Shown here: positions 5,614 through 13,958 of the stretch, in pieces
Layout: each line of letters begins with the position of its first letter
How positions within the stretch are numbered: the first letter of the stretch is position 1
IMG/VR virus record: IMGVR_UViG_2703718823_000018
DNA: 17,832 bases
Reading direction: 5' to 3' (one strand)
Source of the DNA: a virus
Lineage: Duplodnaviria > Heunggongvirae > Uroviricota > Caudoviricetes
Position numbers and translations under genes: made by a program
The notes under the pieces: model-generated
What the model was told of the DNA's origin: nothing
Database searches by the model: none
The model's input: only the letters and a program-made list of their open reading frames with translations

Positions 5614-5769
5614 TTACTCCTCAGGTTCGTAAGCTGTGAAGACAGTGACCTCCGTCTGGCCGGTTCGGATTCGTACCTCGCAGAGGTCTTTCCTCGTTAC
5701 CAGTGCCGTCACAATGACGGTAATACAGATGACGATCAGGGCGACTAACATCGCCTTTTGCTGCTTCAT
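5614..5769 (-). CDS. hokD: Hok/Gef-family type I toxin (HokD/RelF-like), 51 aa
   Basis: Translation MKQQKAMLVALIVICITVIVTALVTRKDLCEVRIRTGQTEVTVFTAYEPEE: transmembrane helix plus conserved RKDLCEVR and TEV..FTAYE blocks of Hok proteins. AGGAG 8 nt upstream of the ATG. Absent from the ORF track (below 60 aa). Confidence 0.9.
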   Translation of the reverse strand: MKQQKAMLVALIVICITVIVTALVTRKDLCEVRIRTGQTEVTVFTAYEPEE

Positions 5770-5825
5770 AGCCTGCTTCTCCTTGACCTTTCGGTCCGTA
5801 AGAGGCTAATCTCTATGTGTCGCAT
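5766..5825 (-). CDS. mok-like upstream ORF (19 codons) coupled to hok
   Basis: ATG at 5825 (MRHIEISLLRTERSRRSRL); its TGA overlaps the hok ATG (cTATGAag). The uORF start lies inside a hairpin (tctatg-tgtcg-cataga, 5812-5828). Analogous to mok but much shorter than plasmid R1 mok. Confidence 0.4.
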   Translation of the reverse strand: MRHIEISLLRTERSRRSRL

Positions 5826-6027
5826 AGATATGGCCTCAGATTAATGTTAAGCGTCTTGCAGGACGCGTAATGTTAACTGGGGCTTTTCTCTATCTGCCTT
5901 TTGGTGTTCATGCCTGAGACAGATAGCCTCAAGCACCCGCAGTTATTCTACTTAACTAAGATTTCCCCGCAAACCGTTTTTGTCCGGCACAGTAAATATC
6001 CAACTAAACCAATGGCGTTCGCTGTAT

Positions 6028-11886: not shown

Positions 11887-12294
11887 ATGAAAAACGAAAC
11901 CTTCGGTGCTCGCCTCTTATACAGGCGTAAAAAATTAAAACTGTCTCAGGCCGCATTAGGTAAGCTGGTCAAAGTGGCTCACGTAACAATTTCTCAATGG
12001 GAAAGAGATGAAACACAGCCAGCGGGGAAGAGATTATTCGCACTGAGCCAGGCGCTTCAGTGCTCGCCGACTTGGCTTCTTTTTGGAGATGAAGATAAGC
12101 AACCAGGCGAACCGATCTCAGATAATCAGCCAGTTAATCTGACAGAAGATCAAAAAGAGTTGCTTCAACTGTTCGACGCACTGCCTGAGTCAGAGCAAAA
12201 GGCTCTGTTGTCAGAGATGCGTGCTCGAGTTGAGAATTTCAACAAACTTTTTGAAGAACTACTCAAAGCTCGCAAAAGAAGCGCAAATAAATAA
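11887..12294 (+). CDS. dicA: DicA-like HTH (XRE-family) prophage repressor, 135 aa
   Basis: N-terminal HTH (LKLSQAALGKLVKVAHVTISQWERDETQP), no LexA-type peptidase domain; blocks such as FALSQALQCSPTWLLFGDEDKQP and MRARVENFNKLFEELLKARKR match my recollection of K-12 DicA (135 aa). Confidence 0.85.
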   Translation: MKNETFGARLLYRRKKLKLSQAALGKLVKVAHVTISQWERDETQPAGKRLFALSQALQCSPTWLLFGDEDKQPGEPISDNQPVNLTEDQKELLQLFDALPESEQKALLSEMRARVENFNKLFEELLKARKRSANK

Positions 12295-12359
12295 CCCCCC
12301 CTTTTTTTTTCGCCACTCTCTGTAATAAAAAGCACAAACTTTCAAATACTTGTGTTTTT

Positions 12360-12440
12360 TACATCAAAAAACTTAGGTTTTTCTACATAAAAAGCTTGAC
12401 CACAATTCTTAGGTTATTCTAAATTCTACTCATCAAGACA
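12360..12440 (+). promoter_or_regulatory. Candidate DicA-controlled promoter/operator of the ydfA-dicF-dicB operon
   Basis: Direct repeats aCTTAGGTTtTTCTAcat (from 12371) and tCTTAGGTTaTTCTAaat (from 12407) flank a TTGACC -35-like hexamer at 12396-12401. CTTAGG is the reverse complement of the CCTAAG half-site in the dicA-dicC region. Confidence 0.4.
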
Positions 12441-12501
12441 CCGCACGGTGTTCTCAGCAAACTGTTCCGCTCCCCCGGCGTTAAGGGGAAATGAGGTCAG
12501 C

Positions 12502-12654
12502 ATGGATACTATCGAGCTTGGCAACAGCGAATCTCTGGTATGCGGCGTGTTTCCCAACCAGGACGGCACGTTTACCGCGATGACGTATACCAGAAGCAAA
12601 ACGTTTAAAACTGAAGCTGGCGCGCGTCGCTGGTTAGCCAGAAACACTGACTGA
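12502..12654 (+). CDS. ydfA: YdfA-like small protein (50 aa)
   Basis: ATG at 12502 preceded by GAGGT. MDTIELGNSESLVCGVFPNQDGTFTAMTYTRSKTFKTEAGARRWLARNTD; first gene after dicA as in Qin. The ORF-track start further upstream lacks an RBS. Confidence 0.65.
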   Translation: MDTIELGNSESLVCGVFPNQDGTFTAMTYTRSKTFKTEAGARRWLARNTD

Positions 12655-12665
12655 TGAGGTTGACG

Positions 12666-13040
12666 ATGGAATTTAAAGATTTACCAGTACCATTCCAGGA
12701 AATGGCATCGAATGTGGTTCGCTCTCAACTGGCGACTCTTGACCTGAGTACCGTAGAAAAAGAAACAATCGACAATATATCCGGTAACGTACGCCGAGCC
12801 TTTATCGGGCTGTACGAAGAGAAGCAGCTCTCTGATAACCAGGATTTACATGAAAAATACTTTCTGGAATTAATGGACATCATTAATAAAGGATTTGGCT
12901 TGTTAATGAAAAAGAAAGGGATTCGAATAGCTCCCCTTGAAAATCATTTTACAGCAAGCAGTATTAATTCCTGTGATTTAAAGCATCACACATCCGATGG
13001 GAAAGTTGAATCAAACAACAAAATATCAATTAATCATTAA
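12666..13040 (+). CDS. Hypothetical protein (124 aa), AT-rich, inside the DicA-repressed operon
   Basis: ATG at 12666 with GAGG 8 nt upstream. Hydrophilic, no recognisable motif. Occupies the slot where K-12 Qin carries ydfB/ydfC, but is not obviously related to them. Confidence 0.5.
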   Translation: MEFKDLPVPFQEMASNVVRSQLATLDLSTVEKETIDNISGNVRRAFIGLYEEKQLSDNQDLHEKYFLELMDIINKGFGLLMKKKGIRIAPLENHFTASSINSCDLKHHTSDGKVESNNKISINH

Positions 13041-13344
13041 TTTATTCACAGGTGAGGTAGAGTGCGTGCGCCGGACACGGATAAGAATCCGGCACTGACA
13101 GTTAACTGAAAAGGATATATCCCTGAAAAGTCAGGGCATAACACGAAAGCGCCCGGCGAAGTTAGTCTCTCTGTATAGGTCGTCGTTAAATTTTCGTCGA
13201 CCGTGCGCTTCCGGTTGTGGCACTCCGCGAAATGGCGCGGAGGTAAGTATGGCGGGGTTATTCCTTCCCCGTTGAGGACACCGGGTTGTCAGGTTGACCA
13301 TACGCTTAAGTGACAACCCAGCTGCAACGCCCTCTGTTATCAAT

Positions 13345-13402
13345 TTTCTGGTGACGTTTGGCGGTATCAGTTTTACTCCGTGACTGCTCTGCCACCCTTT
13401 TT
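13345..13402 (+). ncRNA. dicF: DicF small RNA
   Basis: tttctggtgacgtttggcggtatcagttttactccgtgactgctctgccaccc followed by TTTTT matches my recollection of the 53-nt DicF sequence at all but about one position; located between ydfA and dicB as in Qin. Exact ends are approximate. Confidence 0.8.
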
Positions 13403-13406
13403 AAAG

Positions 13407-13567
13407 TGAATTTTGTGATGCGGTGAATGCGGCTATGCGCACGCGGAACAGTTAAAACCGTAAAGTGGTCTTTTACGGGGCGTAACGGGCATCCTTCTGT
13501 ATTCCGGCGTTAATTGTTAACTGGTTAACGTCACCTGGAGGCACCAGGCACCGCATCACAAAATTCA
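13407..13567 (+). repeat. 19-bp perfect inverted repeat bracketing the dicF-dicB spacer
   Basis: tgaattttgtgatgcggtg (13407-13425) is the exact reverse complement of caccgcatcacaaaattca (13549-13567); the arms are 123 nt apart and the second arm ends 5 nt before the dicB Shine-Dalgarno. Confidence 0.6.
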
Positions 13568-13584
13568 TTGTTGAGGACGCGATA

Positions 13585-13773
13585 ATGGAAACGTTATTAC
13601 CAAACGTTAATACGTCTGAAGGTTGTTTTGATATTGGTGTTCTGCTCAGTAACCGGGAGTTTACGGAAGATGCCATTAAGATGAGAAAATATGAACCTTA
13701 TCTTCTCAATGATAATTCCATACTTTCCAGAATTGCCCTTCTTGAACTTGGTATTATCGGAGAACAGCAGTGA
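13585..13773 (+). CDS. dicB: DicB-like cell-division inhibitor (62 aa)
   Basis: ATG at 13585 with GAGGA upstream. METLLPNVNTSEGCFDIGV...FTEDAI closely matches the DicB N-terminus as I recall it. Confidence 0.8.
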   Translation: METLLPNVNTSEGCFDIGVLLSNREFTEDAIKMRKYEPYLLNDNSILSRIALLELGIIGEQQ

Positions 13774-13958
13774 CTTCAGCATTTGCACTGGTGATGACCG
13801 TTTTTCTTATAACGGGTGAGCCACAAAATGTGATTACCGGAATTTATGACAGTAAGTCATCCTGCATTCAGGTAAGGGACGAACAAAAAATCCCCGGTGA
13901 ATGCCTCCCGTTAAAAAAAGTATCGCTGAACCTGAATAACGAAATACCGGCTGGATAA
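13770..13958 (+). CDS. ydfD: YdfD-like small membrane protein (62 aa)
   Basis: GTG start overlapping the dicB stop (GTGA). N-terminal hydrophobic segment SAFALVMTVFLITGEP and ...EQKIPGEC...EIPAG resemble Qin YdfD as I recall it. Confidence 0.6.
   Translation: MTSAFALVMTVFLITGEPQNVITGIYDSKSSCIQVRDEQKIPGECLPLKKVSLNLNNEIPAG

Follow-up and report, generated by a model that had tools for sequence, protein, structure and literature searches.

Between the small RNA gene dicF and the division-inhibitor gene dicB, the stretch of viral DNA analysed here (17,832 nt, referred to below as the window) carries a long inverted repeat. This raises the question of whether the repeat acts as RNA or as DNA, and of what is enclosed between its arms. 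A repeat search placed the arms at 13407–13425 (TGAATTTTGTGATGCGGTG) and 13549–13567 (CACCGCATCACAAAATTCA), each 19 nt long, 100% complementary and spaced by 123 nt. This was the longest perfect inverted repeat of the 17.8-kb window, the runner-up measuring 12 nt, and the longest repeat in 200 dinucleotide-preserving shuffles was mostly 10–12 nt, with a maximum of 14 nt. As RNA, the helix runs to 21 consecutive pairs, since the 19 pairs of the repeat are continued by G13406·U13568 and A13405–U13569, and the minimum free energy (MFE) fold of positions 13340–13600 includes all of them (−93.6 kcal/mol, z = −4.6). A helix of 21 bp is far beyond chance. An earlier note on this DNA had reported a perfect 19-bp repeat around the dicF-dicB spacer, a 3′ arm whose end (13567) lies 5 nt ahead of the dicB Shine-Dalgarno sequence (SD) and smaller hairpins inside the 123-nt loop, and all of these observations were reproduced, the last of them by folding.

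The features of the locus are collected in Table 1.

Table 1. Coordinates of DicF, of the helices of the dicF-dicB core and of dicB in the window
Feature	Position	Strand	Evidence or remark
DicF small RNA with Rho-independent terminator hairpin and T-run	13346..13402	+	Rfam RF00039, 70.1 bits (gathering threshold, 48)
Extended P1, 5′ strand (A13405, G13406, then perfect arm 13407–13425)	13405..13425	+	Repeat search, fold, covariation
Junction AAU and hairpin P2 (GCGGCUAUGCGCACGC)	13426..13444	+	Helix 2: paired in 98% of cells across 31 sequences
Pseudoknot 5′ strand CAGUUAA	13449..13455	+	Pairs with P4 loop, 13517–13523
Variable middle region (P3)	13458..13505	+	In this allele, hairpin CCGUAAAGUGGUCUUUUACGG at 13458–13478
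Hairpin P4 (GGCGUUAA / UUAACGUC), loop with UUAACUG at 13517–13523	13506..13532	+	Helix 3: 5 of 8 pairs changed on both sides
Hairpin P5 (CCUGG-AGGCA-CCAGG), within the near-invariant 3′ box UCACCNGGAGGCACCNGGCACC	13534..13548	+	U-A to G-C swap in 3 sequences
Extended P1, 3′ strand (perfect arm 13549–13567, then U13568, U13569)	13549..13569	+	Repeat search, fold, covariation
dicB Shine-Dalgarno GAGGA	13573..13577	+	Outside helix, 5 nt past perfect arm
dicB allele, 62 aa, ATG at 13585	13585..13773	+	Pfam DicB PF05358, 129.5 bits

The match to the DicF family itself spans 13346–13397 and the T-run stops at 13402, and both the score and the terminator hairpin identify this RNA as DicF. Only 2 nt separate the end of the DicF terminator from the long helix, which is therefore confined to transcripts that read through the terminator. 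Downstream of GGUG, the last four nucleotides of the left arm, the AAU junction and hairpin P2 complete a conserved 5′ box (GGUGAAU plus hairpin, 13422–13444), and the exact 3′ box is found at 13532–13552 (two matches in the window against 0.00 expected). The locus is common, with 4642 of 5426 complete E. coli genomes matching positions 13300–13800 at a median of two places per genome. The Qin orthologue of K-12 is about 90% identical over window positions 13300–13696 (covering the spacer and the beginning of dicB) and is placed identically with respect to DicF and dicB. Its arms are identical to those of the window save for two C/U differences, one C-to-U change in each arm, both of which still pair as G·U; the stem is thus perfectly Watson-Crick in the present allele and contains two G·U pairs in K-12. 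The middle region P3 is shorter and of different sequence in K-12, the present allele being 13 nt longer, and the C-terminal half of DicB is also unlike that of K-12.

Upstream of DicF, positions 11887–13040 (+) encode a DicA-like repressor followed by ORFs of 68 and 128 aa, where K-12 has ydfA-ydfB-ydfC. The 501 bp around the repeat are 100% identical to strain S19-651, in which the upstream genes differ again (relBE and ydfABC). On sequence comparison, the early-left operon reads as a mosaic around a conserved dicF-core-dicB block. Elsewhere in the window, a sok antitoxin RNA at 5767–5938 (−) (Rfam RF01794, 106.7 bits) implies that this prophage also has a toxin-antitoxin locus of the hok/sok type.

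The helix was also considered as an intrinsic terminator and rejected as such: there is no terminator-like site on the plus strand in 13405–13580, and the helix is followed by GUUGAGGACG. On the minus strand, the P3 hairpin at 13458–13478 does score as terminator-like (CCGTAAAAGACCACTTTACGG followed by TTTTAACTGT). K-12 is without this hairpin, and the score is probably incidental.

With 21 pairs (13405–13425 with 13549–13569), the helix reaches the length of an RNase III substrate, which is about two turns, or 20–22 bp and more. In K-12, an RNase III-made 3′ end gives rise to a 72-nt DicF (Faubladier, Cam and Bouche 1990, as cited in Balasubramanian et al. 2016, PMC5069750, and Ponath et al. 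2022, PMC9438474), and dicA-dicF-dicB is named among the intergenic substrates of RNase III in a 2009 review (PMC2777011). The main DicF species is described as 53 nt long and as stopping at the DicF terminator, before the stem is reached, the 72-nt form coming only from read-through transcripts. Counted from the DicF 5′ end (13345/6), the 72-nt end maps to about 13416, or up to ~13420 if U residues of the terminator are counted in the 53-nt form, values that are arithmetic from secondary citations and carry an uncertainty of ±4 nt. The 3′ end of the 72-nt form would then lie within the left arm (13405–13425), ~12 bp from the base of the helix.

A comparison of rnc mutant and wild-type RNA-seq data (Gordon et al. 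2017, PMC5371410, Table S1) lists MG1655 position 1649470 as 'intergenic dicF-dicB', marked as known, with 26 reads in the rnc mutant versus 0 in both wild-type replicates. Mapped via a K-12-like record, this position corresponds to about 13433 of the window, 8 nt beyond the left arm, in the loop. The record has DicF starting at 1649382, in agreement with the MG1655 coordinate. As the RNA-seq peaks merge sites within 400 bp and are unstranded, the peak backs RNase III action in the spacer rather than any precise site, and the dicF-dicB site is inseparable in these data from a known RNase III site further upstream. The latter is a different site, at which a cut upstream of DicF gives a 190-nt species its 5′ end (Ragunathan et al. 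2023, PMC10448788). It is the sole RNase III site mapped in that paper, the stem in the dicF-dicB spacer being absent from the mapped sites, and the main text of an RNase III 5′P-mapping study (PMC6212723) names DicF solely in a citation. The sequence around the known upstream site of Qin (GUGCGCUUCCGGUUGU, window 13203–13215) is conserved in the Rac prophage of E. coli BW25113 (GUGCGCCUCCGGUUGU, 1491–1502 of locus L125), and the table of PMC5371410 includes a peak in the kilR-sieB spacer at 1418510 (about 1477 of L125), close to this conserved Rac sequence.

As far as these secondary citations reach, the finding as it had first been posed is the K-12 RNase III site of 1990, already known, and on its own it re-discovers that result and changes nothing. 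The proposal of an RNase III processing site is upheld in substance by the K-12 literature, through the 72-nt end placed in the left arm by arithmetic and the rnc/wild-type peak in the spacer, and is not new. The accompanying proposal that processing releases DicF is only partly right, as it applies to the 72-nt form made from read-through transcripts and not to the main 53-nt DicF with its terminator-made end.

A different picture emerged from the sequence between the arms. Whereas the earlier note had treated the 123-nt loop as a spacer, our analysis points to a conserved structured RNA module. In a permissive Rfam scan, positions 13395–13617 matched STnc100 (RF02076) with 36.8 bits (E = 2.2e-6), below the gathering score of 47. 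Among 4227 Rfam families, STnc100 alone matched the core, at this sub-threshold level, and no tRNA-like, ribozyme or riboswitch match was obtained; the K-12 Rac copy scored 28 bits against the same family. Compared with the topologies of HDV-like and other ribozymes and with the tRNA-like fold, the core has a helix order that does not fit.

Viral contigs were then scanned for the 3′ box (TCACCNGGAGGCACCNGGCA), yielding at least 120 loci. In the matches listed, the family consists of a 5′ box (GGUGAAU plus hairpin), a variable middle, an almost invariant 3′ box and a closing helix, P1, the sequence of which varies freely yet stays complementary (GCAUGGUG/CACCAUGC, CUACGGUG/CACCGUAG, GCUGCUGUG/CACAGCAGC). 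RNAalifold applied to 62 non-dicB-type copies among the matches listed predicted P1, P2, a 3-bp base of P3, P4 and P5, with changes on both sides at 13 of 27 predicted pairs. In addition, the strand after P2 can pair with the loop of P4 to form a pseudoknot, which comprises 7 bp in the window. Among the listed matches, a cognate pseudoknot of at least 6 bp was present in 49 of 54 distinct copies, made up of more than 20 different sequence pairs, and cognate strands paired over 7.0 bp on average versus 5.2 bp for non-cognate combinations.

A covariance model built exclusively from non-dicB-type copies detected window positions 13412–13562 with 68.6 bits (E about 2.5e-18), the K-12 Qin spacer with 63.1, the K-12 Rac copy with 58 and a copy in phage P7 with 72.8 bits. 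Because the 3′ box, which the window has as well, served to select the training loci, all of these scores are inflated. With the superfamily delimited as here, the core has both boxes, the covarying helices P1, P2, P4 and P5 and the pseudoknot. Judged by sequence and predicted structure, the 123-nt loop is a divergent member of the STnc100/PasD family of prophage RNAs.

A true STnc100 copy was also identified in the same window at 545–750 (−) (174.6 bits), just downstream of three tRNA genes (887–1135 (−)), so that the window holds two members of one RNA family in two contexts. Beside the tRNA genes lies a 352-aa ORF (1176–2234 (−)), presumably encoding a DNA methyltransferase, and the STnc100-tRNA-ORF layout (545–2234) resembles the late region of Stx-type lambdoid phages.

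Members of the family fall into two forms according to the length of P1. Among the matches listed, P1 measured 6–10 bp in stand-alone copies and 20–23 bp in three clades, every copy of the latter kind (by instance count) carrying a dicB-type 5′ box. Stand-alone copies have features of independent genes. With a match threshold of at least 9 of 12, a sigma-70-like promoter was found at 15 of 64 distinct stand-alone (STnc-type) copies versus 0 of 21 embedded dicB-type copies among the matches listed. The −10 elements of these promoters end 7–10 nt before GGUG (12 of them at 8 nt), a spacing that places the start of transcription at the base of the short P1. In three loci (L095 4362–5520, L024 355–1006 and L042 1708–2359), STnc100-like copies follow one another in tandem, at least three to an array and spaced by roughly 253 nt; in the first of these, every unit carries a single-stranded tail and a Rho-independent terminator of its own, and variable region and tail differ from unit to unit. 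Many stand-alone copies have tRNA genes nearby, although none lie inside the tandem arrays. The copy in P7, for instance, has an 8-bp P1 and is located between tRNA genes and a terB homologue, with neither dicF nor dicB. The dicF-dicB core does not qualify as a stand-alone gene with promoter and Rho-independent terminator of its own: what follows it is the dicB SD, and no terminator.

The long stem is maintained as RNA. In 31 distinct long-stem sequences among the matches listed, the 21-bp helix was 98.9% paired and 9 of its 21 pairs were changed on both sides, most of this covariation being contributed by a few clades. The observed level was reached in 0 of 500 shuffles, and slid controls paired at 32–42%. 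In one clade (L031, L036 and L089), a stem of 20–22 bp with a largely different outer part (CAACAGACCUUGCAAUGCAGUG and its complement) encloses a related core, and 9 of 21 aligned stem pairs differ on both sides; KilR-type copies have a stem of 22–23 bp with one bulged A. Across the 31 sequences, G·U pairs occur at four helix positions (columns 7, 12, 22 and 23). Since G·U would become A·C in minus-strand RNA and a mismatch in DNA, selection acts on the plus-strand RNA. From this pattern of substitution, the long stem reads as a specialised, lengthened version of the family's P1.

The same data bear on the idea that the repeat is a feature of the DNA, either the terminal inverted repeats of a miniature mobile element or a split palindrome bound by a protein. 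Such a reading could appeal to the fact that a 161-bp unit with perfect 19-bp repeats is also met without dicF and dicB, for example in phages P7 and D6 (in D6, no annotated feature lies under the match to the repeat-bounded stretch); in Shigella phage POCJ13, the stretch is located directly upstream of a Kil septation-inhibitor gene. We regard it as very improbable, however, as there is no target-site duplication (the flanks are AAAG and TTGT), substitutions keep the pairing via G·U, which is workable only in plus-strand RNA, copies in other contexts are without long arms, as with the 8-bp P1 of P7, and the arms merely prolong, on its outer side, a helix for which covariation is seen throughout the RNA family. 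A miniature inverted-repeat transposable element was rejected on the same flanks and on arms that vary by G·U-preserving and compensatory changes.

Acting as RNA, the helix need not be cut. It could be a protective or insulating hairpin that blocks 3′-exonucleases or Rho loading, or that holds the core in shape. The helix is indeed very stable and directly follows a terminator, and kilR in the Rac prophage is silenced by Rho/NusG. Yet cores of the family fold with a P1 of 6–10 bp, which means that 21 bp are not needed for folding, and RNase III-dependent ends and coverage differences have been reported for the dicF-dicB spacer (PMC5069750 and PMC9438474, citing earlier work, and PMC5371410), so that a hairpin without cleavage seems improbable to us.

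Further information came from the genes downstream. Long-stem copies sit at a fixed distance upstream of division-inhibitor genes: among the matches listed, and counted without deduplication, 39 of 42 long-stem instances precede genes of the DicB, KilR or lambda-Kil type. DicB (Pfam PF05358) follows in 30 of these 42 listed instances, a KilR-type protein (phrog_294, 'Kil protein for bacterial septation inhibition') in six, and a lambda-Kil-like protein (Pfam PF06301, 41.5 bits), preceded by a hydrophobic ORF of 36 aa, in three; the three exceptions precede a Rha/Ash-family protein (two) or a protein of unknown function. By comparison, 83 short-stem STnc-type instances among the matches listed had 300 nt or more of sequence downstream, and not one of them stood before such an inhibitor gene. 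The association is partly phylogenetic. DicB, KilR and lambda Kil are unrelated in sequence, however, and it is therefore not simply a matter of one conserved block. K-12 has two copies, one in Qin (dicF-core-dicB) and one in Rac, where a DicF-like hairpin (39 bits) is followed by a long-stem core and then by kilR.

The DicF-like hairpin upstream of kilR (1507–1577 of L125) is preceded by AUUGCUGUGUGUAGUC, which matches 16 nt of the RprA consensus exactly (Rfam RprA, 28 bits, E = 0.45), and this region could be a prophage RNA sharing a sequence block with RprA. In the window, the 5′ seed of DicF (GGUGACGUU, 13350–13358) is complementary at 9 of 9 positions to AACGUCACC (13527–13535) at the P4/P5 junction of the core, and ACGUUUGG (13354–13361) is complementary at 8 of 8 positions to dicB codons 6–8 (13600–13607). 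By base complementarity, DicF might pair in cis or in trans with the core or with dicB mRNA. In the DicF-like RNA of Rac, however, the seed is another one and no matching change was found, so that these complementarities may be due to chance; a conserved switch based on pairing of the DicF seed with the core was rejected for this reason.

Taken together, we think it likely that the inverted repeat is a lengthened P1 of an STnc100/PasD-type pseudoknotted module, located between the DicF terminator and dicB and cut by RNase III. Most transcripts would stop at the DicF terminator. In those that read through, the arms would pair into the 21-bp duplex and RNase III, whose action at this locus is reported for K-12, would cut ~12 bp from the base of the helix, the position in the present allele being extrapolated from K-12. 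If both strands are cut, the usual geometry of the enzyme, with a 2-nt stagger, would put the cut in the 3′ strand at about 13559/13560. The expected products would be the 72-nt form of DicF, a core RNA of ~143 nt (about 13417–13559) and a dicB mRNA whose newly made 5′ end would lie about 25 nt ahead of its AUG. A cut at about 13416/13417 would leave GAUGCGGUG, that is a P1 of 9 bp, within the length range of the family's stand-alone P1. Cleavage would uncouple the division-inhibitor cistron from the upstream RNA. The counts of 0 wild-type versus 26 rnc mutant reads inside the core argue against a stable excised core, in exponential LB cultures, with very low expression and unstranded reads.

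The proximity of the helix to the dicB start had also suggested a translational switch, in which the helix or an alternative pairing masks and unmasks the ribosome-binding site and cleavage or melting turns DicB on. RNase III-dependent activation of translation has precedents in lambda cIII and adhE. The former is also described in the 2009 review (PMC2777011). Apart from the short distance between the 3′ arm and the SD, the MFE fold of the read-through RNA contains a weak pairing of GAGG with CCUU of the terminator tail. This 4-bp pairing competes with the terminator hairpin, however, both SD and AUG lie outside the helix, and KilR-type copies have their SD some 10 nt more distant from it. 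Partition-function calculations gave unpaired probabilities of 0.14–0.20 for the SD in the uncut and 0.22–0.24 in the cut RNA, and of 0.33–0.35 and 0.38–0.39, respectively, for the region from −20 to +15. With accessibility predicted to change so little on cleavage, the claim of a switch in the earlier note finds no support in the folding, an operator sequestering the ribosome-binding site was rejected on the same grounds, and we consider translational switching unlikely. Under the preferred reading of an RNase III-cut P1, cleavage would probably set the stability of dicB mRNA rather than unmask its ribosome-binding site.

A broader proposal is more tentative, and we hold it to be possible though somewhat short of an even chance: that the Qin operon dicBF and, in parallel, the Rac operon kilR and the lambda-Kil operons found in other prophages encode an additional, so far overlooked product, a pseudoknotted STnc100/PasD-type RNA of ~140 nt, excised by RNase III from read-through transcripts via a P1 purposely extended to 20–23 bp, and that this module has been recruited repeatedly directly upstream of three unrelated families of FtsZ-ring inhibitors, controlling them or acting together with them on the host.

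Association of PasD with Hfq and base pairing in trans have been reported from RIL-seq in EPEC, according to a recent preprint (Zhu, Shabalina and Storz, bioRxiv 2026, 10.64898/2026.05.13.724894). Neither dicF nor dicB occurs in the text of that preprint, and they are unnamed in the STnc100 passages of an OMV paper and in the opening lines of the abstracts of other STnc100 literature. Within this body of text, the family membership of the dicF-dicB spacer, the pseudoknot, the existence of two forms and the link to division inhibitors appear to be undescribed. What the present analysis adds is of moderate value and does not amount to a new kind of system: the dicBF operon and the Rac kilR locus are tied to the recently described STnc100/PasD family, a covarying pseudoknot is added to the model of that family, and its members are divided into genes that stand alone, some of them equipped with a promoter and a terminator, and operon inserts predicted to be excised by RNase III. 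That the long-stem form lies almost exclusively ahead of three unrelated inhibitors offers a testable handle on how prophages restrain toxic genes, and the presence of two copies in E. coli K-12, in Qin and Rac, makes the experiments easy to do.

Several known systems invite comparison. With STnc100/PasD, the dicF-dicB core shares the 5′ box, the 3′ box, the order of helices P1 to P5 and the pseudoknot; it differs in its score, which falls below the gathering threshold, in having neither promoter nor terminator of its own, in a P1 of 21 rather than 6–10 bp, and in its location in an early-left operon, STnc100/PasD genes being found near tRNA, Q or lysis genes. Like CJnc190 of Campylobacter (PMC8687705) and ManS of Salmonella (PMC11745405), the core is a candidate for sRNA-like release by RNase III and not by RNase E. 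Unlike in those two cases, action of the released core in trans is purely hypothetical.

In rrn precursors, the stems flanking 16S and 23S rRNA are cut by RNase III. As in those stems, the flanks of a structured RNA pair here into a long helix, and RNase III cutting both strands would release the enclosed RNA, which differs from rRNA in measuring only about 120 nt and in that its release is predicted. At the early R sites of T7, in the lambda N leader and at lambda sib, host RNase III cuts intercistronic hairpins and thereby sets the stability or translation of neighbouring cistrons. The helix described here is likewise a hairpin for host RNase III between cistrons of a phage early transcript. 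The T7 and lambda sites are simple local hairpins, whereas the dicF-dicB helix closes a 123-nt pseudoknotted domain that itself belongs, by the comparisons above, to a conserved RNA family.
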